A stretch of 64,000 bases of DNA from a phage: sequence record PZ452582.1; one strand, written 5' to 3'. Below the pieces are notes generated by a model, which saw only the letters and a list, made by a program, of their open reading frames with translations, did not search any database and was not told the origin of the DNA. The position numbers were made by a program, and so were the translations under genes. Positions 22,966-50,194 of the stretch are shown here, piece after piece (position 1 is the stretch's first letter; every line of letters begins with the position of its first letter).

Positions 22966-23967
22966 ATGACTCGTAACGAATATATCAAATCATTCAATAG
23001 CGTTATTGATGATAAAGCTATACCGATGTTTGGCCAAAATAGCGTTCTTTCTATTATCAATCAATGGCTCAATAGTGTTGATGCAGGTATTGTTTCTTCT
23101 GCTAAATTTATTCATGAAATTCGTAAAATTTCTAGCCGTGTAGATAAAGATAATATCAAGAAAACTTTTAAAGAGTCTCGTCTTCTTTCATATTTGGTTA
23201 ATCGGGATATTCTAGGTAATTTTGGGAAAGAAATTAAACGAACCAAAGATGTAGTAGGATATAATTGGTTCGGTGATGTTAATTCTTATCATCTTAATAA
23301 TAAAGAAGACCCTGAGAATATTTTTACTCGTCGTTGGATTAGTAATTTCAGACTTTTCAAAGGACAGATTCTAAAATCAGCTTCTAAATTATGTTATGGC
23401 GATTATCGTCAAATTCATCCTTTGGCTTCTGATATGATTATCATAAAAGAATATGAACTTGATAAAAATAAAGTATCTATTTTTGTGAATTATGGATTTT
23501 TTACACCAGAAACTAACCAAAAGAACATTAATAAATTTTTCTCAATTGCTAGCACTATAACTCGTCAATTAGAGACCGCATTACTTTGTATGGAAACAGT
23601 AGAAAATATTCATACATATCCTTTTAAGAATATATGCGGCTGGGAAGGATATAAAATTGTAATTAGTCTTCGTGAAGTAAAGTGCGCGTACTCACCGACT
23701 AATAAAGAAATTTACCAACAAAAATGTGAGGAAATTGTGAATACTCCTAAAGAAGAAACTACCCTTGAGGAACTAATGGATAATCTTGATGATTCGCCTG
23801 AACCGGCAGAAATTCGTCCAGAAGTTATTGCACTAGAAAAAGCTTATAAAGAAGTTCTAGAAATTTCTAATAAAGCGCAGAAAGAATATGAGCAGGCTAA
23901 AAAGATTTGGGAAGAATCCGTTAATCGTCTTGATCGTCTTGAACAAGCTTTACAGTTAATTAAGTAA
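22966..23967 (+). CDS. hypothetical protein with C-terminal coiled coil (333 aa)
   Basis: ATG with SD gaggag; track ORF began at 22915 inside the promoter. Confidence 0.6.
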   Translation: MTRNEYIKSFNSVIDDKAIPMFGQNSVLSIINQWLNSVDAGIVSSAKFIHEIRKISSRVDKDNIKKTFKESRLLSYLVNRDILGNFGKEIKRTKDVVGYNWFGDVNSYHLNNKEDPENIFTRRWISNFRLFKGQILKSASKLCYGDYRQIHPLASDMIIIKEYELDKNKVSIFVNYGFFTPETNQKNINKFFSIASTITRQLETALLCMETVENIHTYPFKNICGWEGYKIVISLREVKCAYSPTNKEIYQQKCEEIVNTPKEETTLEELMDNLDDSPEPAEIRPEVIALEKAYKEVLEISNKAQKEYEQAKKIWEESVNRLDRLEQALQLIK

Positions 23968-24019
23968 TTTAAAGCCAAGGATGGCTCGGAGTATAAACCA
24001 TTAACCAAGTGAGAAGAAT

Positions 24020-24943
24020 ATGAAAACTCGTAAACATTATATTGATTATTTTGACAGTCTTATTACTAAACACCGTAATTATCAGATCGGACACAGAGCA
24101 GTAATCAATAATATTCTTCGTGATTTTTTAGACTATATTGGATGGGAAAACCATATTTGTAAAGATACACAAAATGCGTATTCACATTCTCTTGGTTCTT
24201 TGCTCGAGTGGTTCAAACGTTCCCGATTACTATCTTCTGTGATAGCTGTTAATAATGTTAAAAAATTTATGTATCCAAGCTACATTGAGACTAATGTATC
24301 AAATGCTAATGTTGTTACATTTAATATTATTAATGACGTGAAAAGAACTTATTTAGAAGAATGGTTTTCTAAAAATAGTAAAGAAAAATTTGCTAGTGAG
24401 TTTTCACACGAATTTAATAATAATGTGAATATGCTTTTTAAGCATTCTCGTAGACTGTTTTGTCATGGCGATGACCGTACTATTAATGTAAATGTAAAAG
24501 ATTGGGTTACGGCTAAATTCATTCCATCGCAGAATGGACCAGTTGAATTGTCAATTATTGTTTGTGCTCCACATGAAATATATAAAAATCTTCCATATAT
24601 GAAACCATGCGAAGCTAATAAACATAATAAAACGATTCGTTCTTTGACTTATAATCTTCGTACGTTATTGTCTAAAATGGACGTAGTTGAATCCTTTGAT
24701 GATAATACAAATTATGGTCTTTCACTGTTTGAAACTAAAATTGTTATTAAGTTAAAGGACCCTAGTAAATTTAAACCTACACCAAAGCCCAATCATGGGA
24801 ATGATACTATGAAAGAAGAACGCGAATATCTCAGTGCTCGTTTGATTGAAGTTGAAAAACAGATTGAAGAGCATACTAAAGTTCTTAAGGCTTTAACAGC
24901 CAAAGCAAATGGTTTACGTGATGCTATTGAGGTACTGAAATGA
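24020..24943 (+). CDS. hypothetical protein with C-terminal coiled coil (307 aa)
   Basis: SD gagaag; C-terminal coiled coil. Confidence 0.6.
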   Translation: MKTRKHYIDYFDSLITKHRNYQIGHRAVINNILRDFLDYIGWENHICKDTQNAYSHSLGSLLEWFKRSRLLSSVIAVNNVKKFMYPSYIETNVSNANVVTFNIINDVKRTYLEEWFSKNSKEKFASEFSHEFNNNVNMLFKHSRRLFCHGDDRTINVNVKDWVTAKFIPSQNGPVELSIIVCAPHEIYKNLPYMKPCEANKHNKTIRSLTYNLRTLLSKMDVVESFDDNTNYGLSLFETKIVIKLKDPSKFKPTPKPNHGNDTMKEEREYLSARLIEVEKQIEEHTKVLKALTAKANGLRDAIEVLK

Positions 24944-33582: not shown

Positions 33583-34785
33583 ATGAAAGTATGTATTTTT
33601 ATGGCTCGAGGTCTTGAAGGTTGTGGTGTAACTAAATTTTCTCTTGAGCAACGTGATTGGTTTATTAAGAATGGTCATGAAGTAACTTTGGTTTATGCTA
33701 AAGATAAATCATTTACTCGTAATTGCGCGCATGATTATAAATCATTTTCAATTCCGGTTTTATTGGCAAAAGAATATGATAAAACACTTAAGCTGGTAAA
33801 TGATTGTGATATTCTAATTATCAATTCAGTTCCTGCTACTTCGGTTGAAGAAGACACTATTAATAACTATAAAAAAATTATTGATAACATTAAACCTTCT
33901 GTTCGTGTTGTAGTTTATCAACATGACCATTCTTCTCTTTCTTTGCGCCGAAATTTGGGATTAGAAGAAACTGTTCGTCGAGCTGATGTTATTTTTAGCC
34001 ATTCTGATAATGGTGATTTTAATAAAGTTCTGATGAAAGAATGGTATCCTGAAACAGTTTCTCTGTTTGATGATATTGAAGAAGCACCGACAGTATATAA
34101 CTTTCAGCCTCCTATGGATATTGCGAAGGTTCGGTCAACCTACTGGAAAGATGTTTCTGAAATTAACATGAATATCAACCGTTGGATTGGTCGTACGACT
34201 ACATGGAAAGGTTTTTATCAGATGTTTGATTTTCATGAAAAACATCTTAAACCTGCAGGACTAAGTACTATTATGGAAGGTCTGGAACGTTCTCCAGCGT
34301 TCATTCCTATTAAAGAAAAAGGAATTCCATACGAGTATTATCGTCTTCATCAAGTAGACCAAATTAAAATTGCTCCTAATTTGCCAACGCAAATTCTTGA
34401 CCGTTATGTAAATAGCGAAATGCTTGAACGCATGAGTAAATCCGGTTTTGGTTATCAGCTGAGTAAGTTGGACAAAAAATATCTACAGCGTTCTTTAGAA
34501 TATACTCATCTCGAGCTTGGTGCATGCGGAACAATTCCGGTATTTTGGAAATCTACTGGCGAAAATTTAAAATTCCGTGTTGATAATACTCCTTTGACCT
34601 CGCATGATAGCGGTATCATTTGGTTTGATGAAAATGATATGGAATCAACATTTGAACGTATTAAAGAACTGTCATCTGACCGAACTCTTTATGACCGCGA
34701 ACGTGAAAAAGCTTATGAATTTTTGTATCAGCATCAAGATTCAAGCTTCTGCTTTAAAGAACAGTTTGACATTATTACAAAATAA
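33583..34785 (+). CDS. agt: DNA alpha-glucosyltransferase
   Basis: 400 aa, near-identical to recalled T4 Agt (M..CIFMARGLEGCGVTKFSLEQRDWFIKNGHEVTLVYAKDKSF...). Confidence 0.95.
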   Translation: MKVCIFMARGLEGCGVTKFSLEQRDWFIKNGHEVTLVYAKDKSFTRNCAHDYKSFSIPVLLAKEYDKTLKLVNDCDILIINSVPATSVEEDTINNYKKIIDNIKPSVRVVVYQHDHSSLSLRRNLGLEETVRRADVIFSHSDNGDFNKVLMKEWYPETVSLFDDIEEAPTVYNFQPPMDIAKVRSTYWKDVSEINMNINRWIGRTTTWKGFYQMFDFHEKHLKPAGLSTIMEGLERSPAFIPIKEKGIPYEYYRLHQVDQIKIAPNLPTQILDRYVNSEMLERMSKSGFGYQLSKLDKKYLQRSLEYTHLELGACGTIPVFWKSTGENLKFRVDNTPLTSHDSGIIWFDENDMESTFERIKELSSDRTLYDREREKAYEFLYQHQDSSFCFKEQFDIITK

Positions 34786-36241: not shown

Positions 36242-36428
36242 CATTAATGATGAATTCATAGCAAACATTGATTATACCGAAGAAGATTCTAGATATGTTG
36301 GAATAATTTATATTACATCAAAAACAGCACAAGGCGTTGTTTGCATGGCTGAATTTGATGAATACTTTTTAGATTATGATGATATGATAGAATGGTCTAA
36401 AAGATACATTAAAAGGAATCTTTTGTGA
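36213..36428 (+). CDS. hypothetical protein (71 aa)
   Basis: 5' end shares about 30 nt with the start of the downstream HNH gene. Confidence 0.45.
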   Translation: MHTVKFSTFDINDEFIANIDYTEEDSRYVGIIYITSKTAQGVVCMAEFDEYFLDYDDMIEWSKRYIKRNLL

Positions 36429-37279
36429 AGAATTTTAAACTTGACATTAATGATGAATTTTTAATAAAGGAATTAGTTGAAAAATTAGCGTTGAGTGAAG
36501 AAGACGCCAAGTCTTACATTAATTTTATTTCTATGAATTCAACTGTTAAAACTCCAGGTAAAACGGAAGCACATCACGTGCTTCCTAAATCAATATTTCC
36601 TGAATATTTAAAATCTACATGGAATTTAGTTAATTTAAGTCATTTTAATCATTTTAAAGCACATTTCTTATTAGCAAAAGGTAAAAATGGAAAAATGCTA
36701 AATGCTTTAAATAGAATGATGTCAGGAAAAACATATAAAAATTTATCTTTAGCCGAAGTTGATTTAATAGCTGCTGAATATAGTTTTATAAAACAAGATG
36801 TAAGTGACACAATATCAAAAAGGCTTCAACAATATTATTCAAATCCGCAAAATAGAAATGCTGCTAGAGAAAGGGCATTAAAATATTTTTCAGTAGCAAA
36901 AAATAGGAAAGATAACAAAGAAAGATTAAATAATTTTAAAACAAAACAAAAAATTTCAATGGCTTCAAGGGAATGGTTTAATAACGAAGAAAATAAAATT
37001 AAACACCAAAAGGCTGTTCGTGCTGCTTTATCAAAACCTGAATATAAAATAGCTATATCAAATTCAGTAGCTGCTAGTTGGAAAAATCCGGAGATTAGAA
37101 AAGCTCATATAGCATCTCGACGAAAAGGCTATCATTGGGATAATAAAGATAAATTGTATGAATTGTGGATATCATATAATCGTCCTAAACATGTGATGTT
37201 TAGGAAAATGTTAGTTAAGAATGGATATCCAATAGAGGCTTCATTACAGGCTTTAGTTAAAGAATTTTCTTCATTGTGA
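36425..37279 (+). CDS. free-standing HNH homing endonuclease with NUMOD-like DNA-binding repeats
   Basis: HNH motif AHHVLPKS...NLVNLSHFNHFKAH; repeated IS.S..W motifs; GTG start overlapping upstream stop; AT-rich. Confidence 0.65.
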   Translation: MKNFKLDINDEFLIKELVEKLALSEEDAKSYINFISMNSTVKTPGKTEAHHVLPKSIFPEYLKSTWNLVNLSHFNHFKAHFLLAKGKNGKMLNALNRMMSGKTYKNLSLAEVDLIAAEYSFIKQDVSDTISKRLQQYYSNPQNRNAARERALKYFSVAKNRKDNKERLNNFKTKQKISMASREWFNNEENKIKHQKAVRAALSKPEYKIAISNSVAASWKNPEIRKAHIASRRKGYHWDNKDKLYELWISYNRPKHVMFRKMLVKNGYPIEASLQALVKEFSSL

Positions 37280-39230: not shown

Positions 39231-39620
39231 ATGACTAAAATTACTGTGAATTATACTGTTGATGTAAAAGATATTCAGCCAAAACACGTGCGTTCTGAAT
39301 CAAATCCACAAAACCAAAATAAAATTCGTCGAGCATGGGTTTTGTCTCTTTCTGATAACGCAATGGAAGTTATTCAGAACAAAATTAAATCTGCACCTGC
39401 TCGTCATGCGTATTATGAAGCTATCGATCGTGAAGTAAGTAATAAATGGATTGAACTAATGCGCAAACATACTACAGAATCCCTAAATGCCGGTGCTAAA
39501 TTTATTATGACTTCATGTGGTGAACGCCTTGAAGATGAATATTGCGGTAATGCAGATGAACGTCTAATTGTTGCTGCTCAAATTGTTGCCGAAACAATTG
39601 TGGCCGAGTTTAATAAATGA
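39231..39620 (+). CDS. rpbA: RNA polymerase-binding protein RpbA-like (129 aa)
   Basis: Size and position between 46 and 45 match T4 rpbA; no diagnostic motif. Confidence 0.5.
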
Positions 39621-40504
39621 ATTTAGTATATCTTATTAGCTTTCCAGAGCGGGAAGCTAAAAATATTTTTCCGTGTTATTATATAGGTTCAAAAATTAAC
39701 GCAATTTTCGATGGAACAAATATAATTGATTCAGCTGGAAAGATTTATACTGGAAGCGTGTCATCGAGTTATAGCGATGAATATTTTGAACTTATTAAAA
39801 CCACTAAATATACCGTCAAAATTTTAGCTGAAACTATATTAGATCCAAGAAAATTGGAGAGATTTTTTCAATTAAAAGTTAAAGCAAAAAGTAATATAAA
39901 ATATTTTAATAAAGCATACGCAGATGAAAATACTTTAATTGGTGCTAAAGGATATGGAACATATAAAAATGTTTTAACTGGAAAAATTGTAAAGCTTTCG
40001 CAATCTGAAATTACGCCTGAGTATGTCGGTATTCGTAAAGGTTACAAACATAGTTCTGAAGTAAAATACAAAATATCTAATTCAATGAAGAATCACTGGA
40101 CCGATGAGAAAAAGCTTAAACTCTCAAATAAGATGAAATTGAAATATCTTGATTGTAGTTATGCTAAAAAGTTTAGTGATATAATGAATTCAGAAAGTGT
40201 AAGATCAAAAATTTCTAAATCTCAAAAAGAATTATGGAATAATGCTGAAAGAAGACAGAGAGCTTCAATTCAAGCAACTGTTAGAAATAATTTACCGGAA
40301 TTCAAATCAAAATTTAGAAAATCTAAAGCTAGAGGAACTTGGATTGAACATGAAGATGAATTAAAATCTTTATGGCATGCTTACGGAAAACCAAGTTATA
40401 ATAAATTTCGTAAAATTGCAGTAGCTAATGGGTTTAACGACGAATCTTATCAGGGTGCTGTACGGTCCTGGTCTAACTATTATGTAAATAGGAAATTGAA
40501 ATGA
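39617..40504 (+). CDS. free-standing GIY-YIG homing endonuclease (Seg-like) with NUMOD-like repeats
   Basis: LVYLISF...(11 aa)...YYIGSK matches GIY-YIG; C-terminal domain resembles that of the HNH ORF at 36425. Confidence 0.65.
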
Positions 40505-42764: not shown

Positions 42765-43133
42765 ATGATTGAAATTACTCTTAAAAAACCTGAAGATTTT
42801 CTGAAAGTAAAAGAAACTTTGACTCGTATGGGAATTGCTAATAATAAAGATAAAGTTCTGTATCAGTCCTGTCATATTCTTCAGAAAAAAGGACTATACT
42901 ATATCGTTCATTTTAAAGAAATGCTTCGTATGGATGGTCGCCAAGTTGAAATGACAGAAGAAGATGAAGTTCGTCGTGATTCGATTGCATGGCTGTTAGA
43001 AGATTGGGGACTGATTGAAATCGTTCCTGGTCAAAGAACTTTTATGAAAGATTTAACTAATAACTTCCGAGTTATTTCTTTTAAACAAAAACATGAATGG
43101 AAACTCGTTCCTAAATATACGATTGGTAATTAA
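42765..43133 (+). CDS. regA: translational repressor RegA
   Basis: 122 aa between 62 and 43; matches T4 RegA size and context. Confidence 0.9.
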   Translation: MIEITLKKPEDFLKVKETLTRMGIANNKDKVLYQSCHILQKKGLYYIVHFKEMLRMDGRQVEMTEEDEVRRDSIAWLLEDWGLIEIVPGQRTFMKDLTNNFRVISFKQKHEWKLVPKYTIGN

Positions 43134-43134
43134 T

Positions 43135-43356
43135 ATGACTGCTATAACTCCACAAGAATACATGGCGTCTCTTAAAGAAAAATATAATCTTTCTGCGACA
43201 GAAACACTTTTTGATTTACCAGAAAACCTCCAACTAAAATTTCAAGTAGAATTTCAAAAACTAGTTCACCCAGAACAAAAACATTTTACTGCAGTCATTA
43301 AGTCAATTAATGCAGATGGATTGACAATTTTCACCCGGCAAATAGTACTAATTTAA
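43135..43356 (+). CDS. hypothetical protein (73 aa)
   Basis: ATG immediately after regA stop; track ORF 43093 started earlier. Confidence 0.5.
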   Translation: MTAITPQEYMASLKEKYNLSATETLFDLPENLQLKFQVEFQKLVHPEQKHFTAVIKSINADGLTIFTRQIVLI

Positions 43357-43433: not shown

Positions 43434-46130
43434 ATGAAAGAATTTTATATCTCTATTGAAACAGTCGGAAATAACATTGTTGAACGTTATATTGATGAAA
43501 ACGGAAAGGAACGTACTCGTGAAGTAGAATATCTTCCGACTATGTTTAGGCATTGTAAGGAAGAGTCAAAATACAAAGACATCTATGGTAAAAACTGCGC
43601 TCCTCAAAAATTTCCATCAATGAAAGATGCTCGAGATTGGATGAAGCGAATGGAAGACATCGGTCTCGAAGCTCTCGGTATGAACGATTTTAAACTCGCT
43701 TATATCAGTGATACATATGGTTCAGAAATTGTTTATGACCGAAAATTTGTTCGTGTAGCTAACTGTGACATTGAGGTTACTGGTGATAAATTTCCTGACC
43801 CAATGAAAGCTGAATATGAAATTGATGCTATCACTCATTACGATTCAATTGATGATCGTTTTTATGTTTTCGACCTTTTGAATTCAATGTATGGTTCAGT
43901 ATCAAAATGGGATGCAAAGTTAGCTGCTAAGCTTGACTGTGAAGGTGGTGATGAAGTTCCTCAAGAAATTCTTGACCGAGTAATTTATATGCCATTCGAT
44001 AACGAGCGTGATATGCTCATGGAATATATCAATCTCTGGGAACAGAAACGACCTGCTATTTTTACTGGTTGGAATATTGAGGGATTTGACGTTCCGTATA
44101 TCATGAATCGCGTTAAAATGGTTCTCGGTGAACGTAGTATGAAACGCTTCTCTCCAATCGGTCGAGTAAAATCTAAACTAATTCAAAATATGTACGGTAG
44201 CAAAGAAATTTATTCTATTGATGGCGTATCTATTCTTGATTATTTAGATTTGTACAAGAAATTCGCTTTTACTAATTTGCCGTCATTCTCTTTGGAATCA
44301 GTTGCTCAACATGAAACCAAAAAAGGTAAATTACCATATGATGGCCCTATTAATAAACTTCGTGAGACTAATCATCAACGATACATTAGTTATAACATCA
44401 TTGACGTAGAATCAGTTCAAGCAATTGATAAAATTCGCGGGTTTATCGATCTAGTTTTAAGTATGTCTTATTATGCTAAAATGCCTTTTTCTGGTGTAAT
44501 GAGTCCTATTAAAACTTGGGATGCTATTATTTTTAACTCATTGAAAGGTGAACATAAGGTTATTCCTCAACAAGGTTCGCATGTTAAACAGAGTTTTCCG
44601 GGTGCATTTGTGTTTGAACCTAAACCAATTGCTCGTCGATATATTATGAGTTTTGACTTGACGTCTCTGTATCCGAGCATTATTCGTCAGGTTAACATTA
44701 GTCCTGAGACTATTCGTGGTCAGTTTAAAGTTCATCCAATTCATGAATATATCGCAGGAACAGCTCCTAAACCAAGTGATGAATATTCTTGTTCTCCGAA
44801 TGGATGGATGTATGATAAGCATCAAGAAGGTATCATTCCAAAGGAAATCGCTAAAGTATTTTTCCAGCGTAAAGATTGGAAAAAGAAAATGTTCGCTGAA
44901 GAAATGAATGCCGAAGCTATTAAAAAGATTATTATGAAAGGCGCAGGGTCTTGTTCAACTAAACCTGAAGTTGAACGATATGTTAAGTTCAGTGATGATT
45001 TCTTAAATGAATTATCGAATTACACTGAATCTGTTCTTAATAGTCTGATCGAAGAATGTGAAAAAGCAGCTACACTTGCTAACACAAATCAGCTGAACCG
45101 TAAAATTCTTATTAACAGTCTTTATGGTGCTCTTGGTAATATTCATTTCCGTTACTATGATTTGCGAAATGCTACTGCTATCACAATTTTCGGCCAAGTT
45201 GGTATTCAGTGGATTGCTCGTAAAATTAATGAATATCTGAATAAAGTATGCGGAACTAATGGCGAAGATTTCATTGCAGCAGGTGATACTGATTCGGTAT
45301 ATGTTTGTGTAGATAAAGTTATTGAAAAAGTTGGTCTTGACCGATTCAAAGAGCAGAACGATTTAGTTGAATTCATGAATCAGTTCGGTAAGAAAAAAAT
45401 GGAACCGATGATTGATGTTGCATATCGTGAGTTATGTGATTATATGAATAACCGCGAGCATCTGATGCATATGGACCGTGAAGCTATTTCTTGCCCTCCG
45501 CTTGGTTCAAAGGGTGTCGGTGGATTTTGGAAAGCGAAAAAGCGTTATGCTCTGAACGTTTATGATATGGAAGATAAGCGATTTGCTGAACCGCATCTAA
45601 AAATCATGGGTATGGAAACTCAGCAAAGTTCAACGCCTAAAGCGGTTCAAGAAGCTCTCGAAGAAAGTATTCGTCGTATTCTTCAGGAAGGTGAAGAGTC
45701 TGTCCAAGAATATTACAAAAACTTCGAGAAAGAATATCGTCAACTTGACTATAAAGTTATTGCTGAAGTAAAAACTGCGAACGATATAGCGAAATATGAT
45801 GATAAAGGTTGGCCAGGATTTAAATGCCCGTTCCATATTCGTGGGGTGCTAACTTATCGTCGAGCTGTTAGCGGTTTAGGTGTAGCTCCAATTTTGGATG
45901 GAAATAAAGTAATGGTTCTTCCATTGCGTGAAGGAAATCCATTTGGTGACAAGTGCATTGCTTGGCCGTCGGGTACAGAACTTCCAAAAGAAATTCGTTC
46001 TGACGTACTGTCTTGGATTGACTACTCAACTTTGTTCCAAAAATCGTTTGTTAAACCGCTTGCAGGCATGTGTGAATCGGCTGGTATGGACTATGAAGAA
46101 AAAGCTTCGTTAGACTTCCTGTTTGGCTGA
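43434..46130 (+). CDS. 43: DNA polymerase gp43 (family B)
   Basis: 898 aa; exonuclease and polymerase motifs incl. YGDTDS. Confidence 0.97.
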   Translation: MKEFYISIETVGNNIVERYIDENGKERTREVEYLPTMFRHCKEESKYKDIYGKNCAPQKFPSMKDARDWMKRMEDIGLEALGMNDFKLAYISDTYGSEIVYDRKFVRVANCDIEVTGDKFPDPMKAEYEIDAITHYDSIDDRFYVFDLLNSMYGSVSKWDAKLAAKLDCEGGDEVPQEILDRVIYMPFDNERDMLMEYINLWEQKRPAIFTGWNIEGFDVPYIMNRVKMVLGERSMKRFSPIGRVKSKLIQNMYGSKEIYSIDGVSILDYLDLYKKFAFTNLPSFSLESVAQHETKKGKLPYDGPINKLRETNHQRYISYNIIDVESVQAIDKIRGFIDLVLSMSYYAKMPFSGVMSPIKTWDAIIFNSLKGEHKVIPQQGSHVKQSFPGAFVFEPKPIARRYIMSFDLTSLYPSIIRQVNISPETIRGQFKVHPIHEYIAGTAPKPSDEYSCSPNGWMYDKHQEGIIPKEIAKVFFQRKDWKKKMFAEEMNAEAIKKIIMKGAGSCSTKPEVERYVKFSDDFLNELSNYTESVLNSLIEECEKAATLANTNQLNRKILINSLYGALGNIHFRYYDLRNATAITIFGQVGIQWIARKINEYLNKVCGTNGEDFIAAGDTDSVYVCVDKVIEKVGLDRFKEQNDLVEFMNQFGKKKMEPMIDVAYRELCDYMNNREHLMHMDREAISCPPLGSKGVGGFWKAKKRYALNVYDMEDKRFAEPHLKIMGMETQQSSTPKAVQEALEESIRRILQEGEESVQEYYKNFEKEYRQLDYKVIAEVKTANDIAKYDDKGWPGFKCPFHIRGVLTYRRAVSGLGVAPILDGNKVMVLPLREGNPFGDKCIAWPSGTELPKEIRSDVLSWIDYSTLFQKSFVKPLAGMCESAGMDYEEKASLDFLFG

Positions 46131-46216: not shown

Positions 46217-46316
46217 TAGAATTCCCTAAAAAATTTTCACAAAACTGTTTACAAGACTGTTCTTCCATGGTACTATACAACTATCAACTACTGATACAGA
46301 TTTGGAGAATAAAATG
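46217..46316 (+). repeat. promoter-leader cassette copy B (PeSL-like), near-identical to 3134-3250
   Basis: Same -35/-10, leader and ttggagaat.aaaatg start context as copy A. Confidence 0.7.
46248..46276 (+). promoter_or_regulatory. early promoter (TTTACA-17-TACTAT)
   Basis: GTTTAC motif. Confidence 0.65.
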
Positions 46317-46550
46317 AAAATTGTTATGGGATGCTTAGCAGTTTGTTTAGTTGCATTAGCAGCAGTTCCATTTGTTAGTGTTGAAAATGATACTCAACCT
46401 GCGATTGAATCTAGCACCGTTATTCACACTAATGGTAAAATATCAGTTAAAATTGATGATAATCTTCATGTGAATACAAATGGATCTTTAGGTGTGCAAA
46501 TGGGTAATACCTGCATAAGCACTACTGGAGTAATTACTACTTGCATTTGA
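46314..46550 (+). CDS. secreted small protein (78 aa) with N-terminal signal peptide
   Basis: MKIVMGCLAVCLVALAAVPF hydrophobic N-terminus; SD ggag; track ORF began at TTG 46302. Confidence 0.55.
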   Translation: MKIVMGCLAVCLVALAAVPFVSVENDTQPAIESSTVIHTNGKISVKIDDNLHVNTNGSLGVQMGNTCISTTGVITTCI

Positions 46551-46560
46551 GGAAATTATT

Positions 46561-46941
46561 ATGAAAATCGCTATTTTGGTTATTGCATTAGGTCTTACTG
46601 GTTGTGTAGCTCAAGGACCGGTAGTAAATCAGTCTGATGTAGGAAAAATTGTAAACTGTTCAAGCAAATTTTATAATCCTAATGTCAAGTGTTATAAAGA
46701 AGCTCCAAAGCAAACAGTAGAACAAATGCAGGCGAATTTTGACGAAGCTATTCGTCCAGATGAATCTGCTCAAGCATATCGTAATTCGGATGTAATTACA
46801 CGCGAAGAAAAAATTGAAAATTACTGCGCCGAGCTTTGGGCTAATTGGGCTAATAATTACCAATGGCGTACTGGTAAAAATGCTCCGATGGAGTATGTAG
46901 TGAATTCTTATAATTCATGTGTAAAAAATTTGACTAAGTGA
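46561..46941 (+). CDS. predicted lipoprotein (126 aa)
   Basis: Signal peptide with lipobox LTGC (MKIAILVIALGLTGC); SD gagga. Confidence 0.6.
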   Translation: MKIAILVIALGLTGCVAQGPVVNQSDVGKIVNCSSKFYNPNVKCYKEAPKQTVEQMQANFDEAIRPDESAQAYRNSDVITREEKIENYCAELWANWANNYQWRTGKNAPMEYVVNSYNSCVKNLTK

Positions 46942-46948
46942 GGAAAAT

Positions 46949-47263
46949 ATGGAAACTTTAGTAGCAGGTTCAATTTTTATGGTTTTAGTTTCAGGTGTGT
47001 TGGCTATTATTATATACATGCTTCCATGGTTTATTGCTTTGATGCGTGGGTCAAAATCGACAGTAGGAATCTTTTTCACATCTTTACTGTTTAACTGGTC
47101 AATTATTGGTTGGTTTATTACATTTATTTGGTCAATTGCGGGTGAAACTAAAAAGTCTGCACAACCAAATCAGGTAATTATCATCAGAGAGAGAAGGAAT
47201 GAAAAGCAAAATTATAGCAGTGTTGCTTTTAATCTTGATGATTATAATAAGTATATACTATAG
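46949..47263 (+). CDS. imm: membrane protein at the imm position (immunity to superinfection-like)
   Basis: Two to three TM helices; directly upstream of gene 42 as T4 imm; SD gtgagga. Confidence 0.5.
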   Translation: METLVAGSIFMVLVSGVLAIIIYMLPWFIALMRGSKSTVGIFFTSLLFNWSIIGWFITFIWSIAGETKKSAQPNQVIIIRERRNEKQNYSSVAFNLDDYNKYIL

Positions 47264-47355
47264 TGTAACGGTTCCTCTTATGATTCCGACTATTATTTTA
47301 GGTTGGAGCTTATTACTGTTACAAGTTAAATATGAATGTATCAATTGAGGTTTAA

Positions 47356-48096
47356 ATGATTAGTGACTCTATGACAGTTGAAGAAATCCGTCTTCATTTG
47401 GGGCTTGCATTAAAAGAAAAAGATTTCGTAGTTGATAAAACCGGTGTTAAAACTATTGAAATTATTGGCGCATCATTTGTAGCAGATGAACCGTTTATTT
47501 TTGGTGCTCTTAATGATGAATACATTCAGCGTGAACTTGAATGGTATAAATCTAAGAGCTTGTTCGTTAAAGATATTCCAGGTGAAACACCGAAGATTTG
47601 GCAACAAGTAGCATCTTCTAAAGGCGAAATTAACTCGAACTATGGTTGGGCTATTTGGTCAGAAGATAACTATGCCCAGTATGATATGTGTTTAGCTGAA
47701 CTTGGTCAAAATCCTGATTCTCGACGTGGTATCATGATTTATACTCGTCCATCCATGCAATTTGACTACAATAAAGATGGTATGTCAGATTTCATGTGTA
47801 CTAATACAGTACAGTACCTGATTCGTGATAAGAAAGTCAATGCAGTAGTAAGCATGCGCTCAAATGACGTGGTCTTCGGATTCCGTAATGATTATGCATG
47901 GCAAAAATACGTATTAGATAAATTAGTATCTGATTTGAATGCCGGCGATTCATCTCGTCAGTATAAAGCAGGTTCTATTATATGGAATGTCGGAAGTCTT
48001 CATGTATATTCTCGTCATTTTTACTTGGTTGATCATTGGTGGAATACTGGCGAAACTCATATTGTGAAAAAAGACTATAAAGGTGAGTGGAAATGA
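47356..48096 (+). CDS. 42: dCMP hydroxymethylase gp42
   Basis: 246 aa thymidylate-synthase-like fold; position between imm and glycosyltransferase. Confidence 0.95.
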   Translation: MISDSMTVEEIRLHLGLALKEKDFVVDKTGVKTIEIIGASFVADEPFIFGALNDEYIQRELEWYKSKSLFVKDIPGETPKIWQQVASSKGEINSNYGWAIWSEDNYAQYDMCLAELGQNPDSRRGIMIYTRPSMQFDYNKDGMSDFMCTNTVQYLIRDKKVNAVVSMRSNDVVFGFRNDYAWQKYVLDKLVSDLNAGDSSRQYKAGSIIWNVGSLHVYSRHFYLVDHWWNTGETHIVKKDYKGEWK

Positions 48097-48935
48097 TTCA
48101 ATTCGTAATTCCAAGTTATCAGCGTGTCAGGGCAGTTTCTGCCCTTGATATGTTTCCGACTGATTATGAACCGCATATTGTAGTGCGTGAACATGAAGAA
48201 AAAGCTTATCATGACGCTTATGGGTCTAGAGCTAAAATTATAACTATTCCTGATGATGTAAACGGAATTGCCGGTACTCGTAAAGCAATTACCGATATAT
48301 ATGCAGGTCAACGAATCTGGATGATTGACGATGATACTACTATTCGTATGAGTTCAATGCGAAAAAGAGATGATCGTCGTTGCGTAGATAAAGTCAATCA
48401 ATTGACTCGTGAACAGTTCTATGAATTGATTCAATATGTTGAGGATGCCATGGATTGCGGGTATTATCATGGCCATGCTCGTCTACCTATTTTTAAAATT
48501 ACTTCATCTTGGGGTAATTATCGTGAAAATTCATATGGATTCACGAATACATGGTATGACCTCGGAAAACTTACGACAGAACAAATTGGGTATGGAAAAA
48601 TTGATTTATGCGAAGATATGTATGCATTTCTCAATTTAATTAATCAAGGTTATCCGCATTTGGCCTTGTTCAAATATCTAGTTGTATCTGGAAAAGCACA
48701 AGCTCCTGGCGGGTGCAGTTCAATTCGTAGTAATTCTAAACATAATAGAGCGCTTGAGCAGATTAATAGAGAGTTTCCAGAGCAAGCTCGTTGGAAAACT
48801 TCTAATATTGAAAAACGAAAATCGTTGGGTGAAGAAGACGAACCATTAAAGGTTCTTCGCATGTGCGTTTCACGTAAAGAAAAATCAGAAGCATTTCATA
48901 AGTTTAATGCTATTCATCCAATAGCAGTTGATTAA
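48093..48935 (+). CDS. GT-A fold glycosyltransferase (DxD motif) at the T4 beta-gt position; not T4 beta-gt
   Basis: WMIDDDTT DxD motif; ATGA-coupled to gene 42; 280 aa vs 351 aa for T4 beta-gt. Confidence 0.6.
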   Translation: MIQFVIPSYQRVRAVSALDMFPTDYEPHIVVREHEEKAYHDAYGSRAKIITIPDDVNGIAGTRKAITDIYAGQRIWMIDDDTTIRMSSMRKRDDRRCVDKVNQLTREQFYELIQYVEDAMDCGYYHGHARLPIFKITSSWGNYRENSYGFTNTWYDLGKLTTEQIGYGKIDLCEDMYAFLNLINQGYPHLALFKYLVVSGKAQAPGGCSSIRSNSKHNRALEQINREFPEQARWKTSNIEKRKSLGEEDEPLKVLRMCVSRKEKSEAFHKFNAIHPIAVD

Positions 48936-49012
48936 TGCCTAAATTTATTGTGTTATAATTACTCTATCTTTAACCAGTGAGGAAAATATAATGATGCCTA
49001 TGGAAAAAATGA

Positions 49013-50194
49013 ATGTCTATTGCAGATTTAAAATCCCGTTTGATTAAAGCTTCCACTTCTAAAATGACTGCTGAACTGACTACATCTAAATTCTTTAATG
49101 AAAAGGATGTAATTCGTACAAAAATTCCAATGCTTAATATTGCTATTTCTGGTGCGATTGATGGCGGCATGCAGTCTGGTTTAACTATTTTCGCAGGGCC
49201 TTCTAAACACTTTAAATCAAATATGTCTTTGACTATGGTTGCGGCATATTTGAACAAATATCCTGACGCGGTTTGTCTATTCTATGATAGTGAATTTGGT
49301 ATTACTCCAGCTTATTTGCGATCCATGGGAGTTGACCCGGAACGAGTAATTCATACGCCGATTCAGTCAGTTGAACAGCTGAAAATTGATATGGTGAACC
49401 AGCTTGAAGCTATTGAGCGTGGTGAAAAGGTTATTGTATTCATCGACTCAATTGGTAATATGGCTTCTAAGAAAGAAACGGAAGATGCCTTGAATGAAAA
49501 ATCTGTGGCAGATATGACTCGTGCTAAATCACTGAAGTCATTATTCCGTATTGTTACTCCTTACTTTAGCATTAAAAATATTCCATGTGTTGCGGTTAAC
49601 CATACAATTGAAACAATTGAAATGTTTAGTAAAACCGTGATGACAGGTGGTACAGGCGTAATGTATTCGGCTGATACTGTATTCATTATCGGTAAGCGTC
49701 AGATTAAAGATGGTTCTGATCTTCAGGGGTATCAATTTGTTCTAAATGTAGAAAAATCTCGTACCGTTAAAGAAAAAAGTAAATTCTTTATTGATGTTAA
49801 ATTTGACGGTGGTATCGATCCTTATTCTGGATTGTTAGATATGGCTCTAGAATTAGGATTTGTAGTAAAACCTAAAAATGGTTGGTATGCTCGTGAATTT
49901 CTTGACGAAGAAACCGGCGAGATGATTCGCGAAGAAAAATCTTGGCGTGCAAAAGATACTAACTGCACTACATTCTGGGGTCCTTTATTTAAGCATCAAC
50001 CATTCCGAGATGCTATTAAGCGTGCTTATCAGTTAGGTGCTATTGATAGTAATGAAATTGTTGAAGCGGAAGTTGATGAATTAATTAACTCAAAGGTTGA
50101 AAAATTTAAATCCTCAGAAAGTAAAAGTAAATCAGCAGCTGATTTAGAAACTGACCTCGAGCAGTTAAGTGATATGGAAGAATTTAATGAATAA
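49013..50194 (+). CDS. uvsX: recombinase UvsX (RecA-like)
   Basis: 393 aa, near-identical to recalled T4 UvsX over most of its length. Confidence 0.95.
   Translation: MSIADLKSRLIKASTSKMTAELTTSKFFNEKDVIRTKIPMLNIAISGAIDGGMQSGLTIFAGPSKHFKSNMSLTMVAAYLNKYPDAVCLFYDSEFGITPAYLRSMGVDPERVIHTPIQSVEQLKIDMVNQLEAIERGEKVIVFIDSIGNMASKKETEDALNEKSVADMTRAKSLKSLFRIVTPYFSIKNIPCVAVNHTIETIEMFSKTVMTGGTGVMYSADTVFIIGKRQIKDGSDLQGYQFVLNVEKSRTVKEKSKFFIDVKFDGGIDPYSGLLDMALELGFVVKPKNGWYAREFLDEETGEMIREEKSWRAKDTNCTTFWGPLFKHQPFRDAIKRAYQLGAIDSNEIVEAEVDELINSKVEKFKSSESKSKSAADLETDLEQLSDMEEFNE

Follow-up and report, generated by a model that had tools for sequence, protein, structure and literature searches.

A T2/T6-type beta-glucosyl-HMC-alpha-glucosyltransferase gene predicted in the beta-glucosyltransferase slot of a phage genome

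The gene that follows gene 42 in this phage (48093–48935, plus strand) is intact, encodes 280 amino acids and, by open reading frame and homology, is almost certainly the beta-glucosyl-HMC-alpha-glucosyltransferase gene of T2 and T6 (ba-gt, also named ggt or TAGT), the product of which would make gentiobiosyl-hmC together with that of alpha-gt. The identity of the gene, its synteny, its motifs and its GT-A-like fold come from the analysis described here, and the chemistry and the defence phenotypes are taken from the literature. The enzyme presumably corresponds to EC 2.4.1.28, glucosyl-DNA beta-glucosyltransferase. All coordinates refer to the window, by which we mean the whole 64,000-nucleotide stretch of sequence record PZ452582.1 that was analysed, a part of the phage genome.

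The protein matched PHROG 842, named "beta-glucosyl-HMC-alpha-glucosyltransferase", at 1e-87, and scored 42.6 bits against Pfam family PF20691 TAGT (TET-associated glycosyltransferase; gathering cut-off 27.5), with residues 3–207 aligned to positions 2–205 of the 205-position profile. Together with its surroundings (1.8 kb of DNA), the gene shows 99.4% identity to phages RB51, RB68 and Ac3 and at least 98% to dozens more Tequatrovirus records; RefSeq names it beta-glucosyl-HMC-alpha-glucosyltransferase in numerous phages, RB51 and RB68 among them. A tblastn search with the protein found it in 689 phage records, 472 of them at 95% identity or higher and about 200 at 60–80% identity, the latter in phages of Klebsiella, Enterobacter, Salmonella and Citrobacter. 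The protein of phage teqdroes (MN895438) is 100% identical to that of the window, RB51 differs by a single substitution (I69M; 99.6% identity), TB37 (OZ035850) by three (99%), T2 by five in three records (98% over 280 aa), and T6, in two records, by five within the reading frame plus one lesion per record (98%). In RB51, T2, T6 and TB37, too, gene 42 precedes the gene and uvsX follows it.

The reading frame opens with an ATG at 48093, ends with a TAA at 48935 and spans 280 codons. The longest open reading frame call reaches an upstream GTG at 48087, which was dropped as a start because every homologue in the family alignment begins at the ATG, with M-IQFVIPSY. A Shine-Dalgarno-like AAGGTGA (48080–48086, plus strand), read directly from the sequence, lies 6 nt upstream of the ATG, and this start shares bases with the gene 42 stop codon in an ATGA at 48093–48096, an arrangement that suggests translational coupling of ba-gt to gene 42. 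Gene 42 itself (dCMP hydroxymethylase; 47356–48096, plus strand) is annotated in RB51, T2 and T6 and makes the hmC base needed by both transferases. Gene order is as in T4, running through gene 43 (43434–46130), imm.1, imm, gene 42, ba-gt, uvsX and genes 40 and 41; uvsX, which flanks the cassette downstream, lies at 49013–50194 (plus strand). A scan of 47000–49300 for promoters and terminators gave results not above background, with 14 promoter-like sites against 10.9 +/- 3.7 in shuffled sequence and two terminators against 1.3.

Nucleotide homology to T4 breaks off close to the end of gene 42. The stretch from 46561 to 48078, which covers gene 42 as far as 48078, is 96% identical to T4 by blastn; homology stops at 48078 and restarts at 49025, so that a 946-bp segment (48079–49024) is without nucleotide homology to T4 and has T4 homology of 94–98% on both sides. 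The counterpart of this segment in T4 measures 1941 bp and holds b-gt together with the homing endonuclease gene segA. The latter, which T4 has between its b-gt and uvsX genes (23570–24235 of the T4 record), is missing here, and the gap from ba-gt to uvsX is 77 bp (48936–49012). When the ba-gt protein was compared by BLASTP with T4 beta-gt (351 aa; NP_049658), chance matches alone were returned (best E = 2.3), and a tblastn search of the entire 64 kb window with T4 beta-gt gave nothing better than E = 8.7; beta-gt is absent from the window, and a copy elsewhere in the genome would be very unusual.

A sequence-only reading of this DNA had described a 280-aa, GT-A-type product after gene 42 that does not match the 351-aa T4 beta-gt, had pointed to the T2/T6-type enzyme known from this slot and to a probably different hmC sugar pattern, and had named alignment to both enzymes as a check. 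The alignments bear it out: given E values of 2.3 and 8.7 there is no high identity to T4 beta-gt, and the enzymes that T2 and T6 encode at the syntenic position share 98% identity with the protein, in agreement with the PHROG 842 match. The combination of alpha-gt and beta-gt found in T4 is itself rare, occurring in 6 of 753 phage genomes (PMC13216743). Since alpha-gt with TAGT is the common arrangement in Tequatrovirus, the description of the gene as "non-T4" is true, yet the gene is not unusual.

The window also holds other ORFs of note. An 87-aa ORF (43093–43356) lies between regA and gene 43, where the DNA at 43134–43352 is not in T4, and it matches Pfam PF25760, "Phage RB18 ORF43.1 protein" (E = 2e-29). 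An 82-aa ORF with a hydrophobic N-terminus (46302–46550), between gene 43 and imm.1, is absent from T4, the extra DNA being 46328–46560; it is also found in RB51 (RB51ncORF048c), T2 and TB37, and had no Pfam match. Weak tblastn matches of T4 SegA (E = 1e-3 at 40028–40450 and E = 6e-3 at 37136–37231) fall inside ORFs 39617–40504 (295 aa) and 36425–37279 (284 aa), for which Pfam gave nothing significant. Judging from these matches, the two ORFs, situated near genes 45 and 46, may represent insertions of a diverged, homing-endonuclease-like kind.

Sequence motifs and a structural model are both consistent with a GT-A enzyme. The WMIDDD motif, which the sequence-only reading had singled out, corresponds to W76-M77-I78-D79-D80-D81 and is encoded at 48318–48335. 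Residues D79-D80-D81 (codons 48327–48335, plus strand) form a DxD-type motif as in GT-A folds and come where predicted strand E74–77 ends; all three are invariant in a family alignment of 10 sequences reaching down to 32% identity, built from a homologue search that gave 11 clusters. These aspartates would bind metal and UDP-sugar. Besides DDD, 40 columns are invariant, P7, S8, Y9, R11, D175, G206 and G207 among them; the R11 codon lies at 48123–48125 (plus strand). A "CED" sequence includes E174 and D175 (codons 48612–48617, plus strand), of which D175 is invariant and E174 at least 90% conserved. GT2 enzymes have an ED/TED motif, and by analogy with it E174/D175 is a candidate catalytic base.

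Searching the PDB by sequence yielded nothing at E <= 1, and no solved structure of the family was found in this way. An AlphaFold2 model built from the 10-sequence alignment was of moderate quality (mean pLDDT 73.9, pTM 0.76), with pLDDT below 50 at residues 125–138 and 203–211; the 11 clusters sufficed for an alignment but were too shallow a basis for a high-confidence model. Its structural matches were to GT-A-type folds only, including the GT2 enzymes cellulose synthase and TarP, GalNAc-transferases, mannosylglycerate synthase and sugar nucleotidyltransferases of the same fold. By this model, the protein is a GT-A enzyme with a predicted single Rossmann-like nucleotide-diphospho-sugar transferase fold, which supports, at moderate confidence, the fold class first proposed from the sequence. 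GT2-like GT-A enzymes invert configuration, and such a mechanism is consistent with a beta product from UDP-alpha-glucose. Published work assigns TAGT to the GT-A class and places its gene at a position syntenic with that of T4 beta-gt (PMC13216743; PMC13390438).

The proposed substrate of ba-gt would be supplied by genes within the window. The T4-type alpha-gt that had been placed at 33583–34785 (plus strand; DNA alpha-glucosyltransferase, 400 aa) is indeed there, matching the T4 DNA alpha-glucosyltransferase structures 1XV5, 1Y8Z and 1Y6F over its full length at E = 2e-257; its product, alpha-glucosyl-hmC, is what ba-gt accepts as substrate, so that both parts of the acceptor supply, alpha-gt and the hmC pathway via gene 42, are present. 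In the pathway that we envisage, gp42 would provide hm-dCMP to be built into phage DNA, alpha-gt (GT-B) would modify some of the hmC with glucose in alpha linkage, and ba-gt (GT-A), an inverting enzyme with UDP-glucose as donor, would attach a second glucose to the 6-OH of the first, giving alpha-gentiobiosyl-hmC. Virion DNA would then be expected to contain hmC, alpha-glucosyl-hmC and gentiobiosyl-hmC, with beta-glucosyl-hmC absent. Published T6 deletion mutants agree with the last step, as they show that glucose is attached by the enzyme in beta-1,6 linkage to alpha-glucosyl-hmC to form gentiobiosyl-hmC, and T6 without ba-gt (g-gt) loses gentiobiosyl-hmC and is left with about 75% alpha-glucosyl-hmC (PMC11078745; bioRxiv 10.64898/2026.02.25.707755). 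An arabinosyl system of the RB69 type was ruled out by the T4-type gene 42 and alpha-gt and by near-identity to phages with measured glucosyl/gentiobiosyl DNA.

Nucleoside measurements on close relatives allow the sugar pattern to be predicted. In the Durham-collection study, where nucleosides were determined by HPLC/MS, Tequatrovirus with alpha-GT and TAGT had no beta-glucosyl-hmC; the group that includes TB37 had about one-third hmC and two-thirds alpha-gentiobiosyl-hmC with a trace of alpha-glucosyl-hmC, and another phage group was at about 1:2:2. Because alpha-gt is 100% identical and ba-gt 99% identical to their TB37 counterparts, we predict a T6/TB37-like pattern for the window phage, with DNA that would hold roughly one-third hmC and two-thirds gentiobiosyl-hmC.

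According to a 2026 NAR paper, TAGT homologues may accompany alpha-GT, accompany beta-GT or stand alone, so specificities within the family may differ, and the window protein does have a residue combination of its own (R13 and H40, common to RB51, plus I69). A family member of other specificity, one that transfers a different sugar or acts on hmC or beta-glucosyl-hmC and so yields a modification unlike that of T2/T6, is nevertheless very improbable here, as only 3 of 280 residues differ from TB37, the DNA of which was measured, and one from RB51, all at sites that the family does not conserve, and the partner alpha-gt is the same as that of TB37. The likely functional divergers are members at 65% identity or less, in other genera.

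With the T2/T6 specificity retained as the favoured reading, the extent of modification is a separate matter. Gentiobiosyl-hmC makes up about 5% in T2 and 72% in T6. The T2 and T6 enzymes are 98% identical despite this difference, so sequence is a weak guide to how much of the DNA is modified. In all three public T2 records (L004:3283-4125, L007:3286-4128, L008:3295-4137) ba-gt carries R11H and P251S, and TB37 and T2 differ at exactly these two positions. Across the family R11 does not vary, and P251 shows conservation of at least 90%. It is conceivable, though we hold it only tentatively, that the two substitutions cause the low gentiobiosyl-hmC of T2 (about 5%) relative to T6-like phages (about two-thirds or more); the contrast could stem equally well from expression or from alpha-gt. 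The window copy keeps both R11 and P251 (the latter at 48843–48845), and under this reading its enzyme would have full activity, as in T6-like phages.

The public T6 records carry lesions of their own. In MH550421 (L003:3138-3980) a TAG amber stands at ba-gt codon 10, and the CDS is annotated from M20; in AP018814 (L005:3135-3974) one Asp codon of D79-D80-D81 is lost in frame. T6 is the classic high-gentiobiose phage, despite a different ba-gt lesion in each of the two records. These lesions, with the odd substitutions in all T2 records, lend some colour to the notion that ba-gt could be present but inactive or weak, as may hold for laboratory stocks of T2 and T6, leaving DNA that is essentially alpha-glucosylated only. 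For the window phage we judge this to be the least probable of the readings considered, since its copy is full length, keeps Q10, R11, D79–D81, P251 and all invariant columns, and has a Shine-Dalgarno sequence and a presumed coupling to gene 42. None of the observations contradicts the assignment to the T2/T6-type enzyme.

The type of sugar on hmC decides which host defences attack a T-even phage, among them Brig1, BapA, GmrSD/BrxU, McrBC and CRISPR-Cas. The second sugar added by ba-gt would hide alpha-glucosyl-hmC from the Brig1 glycosylase and the BapA deglucosylase. Earlier suspicion, raised from the sequence, that the hmC sugar pattern affects sensitivity to host restriction is well founded in the literature: gentiobiosyl-hmC DNA of T6 resists Brig1, and the ba-gt deletion mutant is more sensitive (PMC11078745). 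DNA of T6 ba-gt deletion mutants is a substrate for both Brig1 and BapA, to which wild-type T6 DNA is resistant (PMC11078745; bioRxiv 10.64898/2026.02.25.707755). Since sugar type sets exposure to these defences, a correct ba-gt call predicts a T6-like rather than a T4-like restriction profile. The call can be regarded as correct and as routine annotation, alpha-gt with TAGT having been studied both genetically and chemically; the gene, its position, fold class, chemistry and role in defence evasion are already published.

Set beside known systems, the window gene is closest to the T2/T6 enzyme (ba-gt, ggt, g-gt; TAGT), with which it shares the length of 280 aa, the ATGA overlap with gene 42 and the partner alpha-gt. 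All conserved residues of that type are kept, and the window copy is without the R11H and P251S of T2 and without the Q10 amber and DDD-codon deletion of the T6 records. TB37 and teqdroes are natural Tequatrovirus isolates of T6-like type, and the TB37 alpha-gt is 100% identical to that of the window. The window as a whole is a mosaic with no exact match among the phage records found; over 25 kb the listed records are 96.8–97.8% identical.

T4 b-gt (GT-B fold; PDB 1JG7) shares with ba-gt the slot after gene 42, the UDP-glucose donor and a beta linkage on phage hmC DNA. The two proteins have no sequence similarity and belong to different fold classes, GT-B and GT-A, and their acceptors differ, T4 b-gt acting on the hydroxymethyl group of hmC and ba-gt on the glucose of alpha-glucosyl-hmC. 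The T4 segment also holds segA, whereas that of the window does not. Among cellular enzymes, the GT-A members of family GT2 (TarP, 6H1J; cellulose synthase BcsA) resemble ba-gt in having a DxD-type motif within a nucleotide-diphospho-sugar transferase fold; inversion, their stereochemical outcome, is expected of ba-gt as well.
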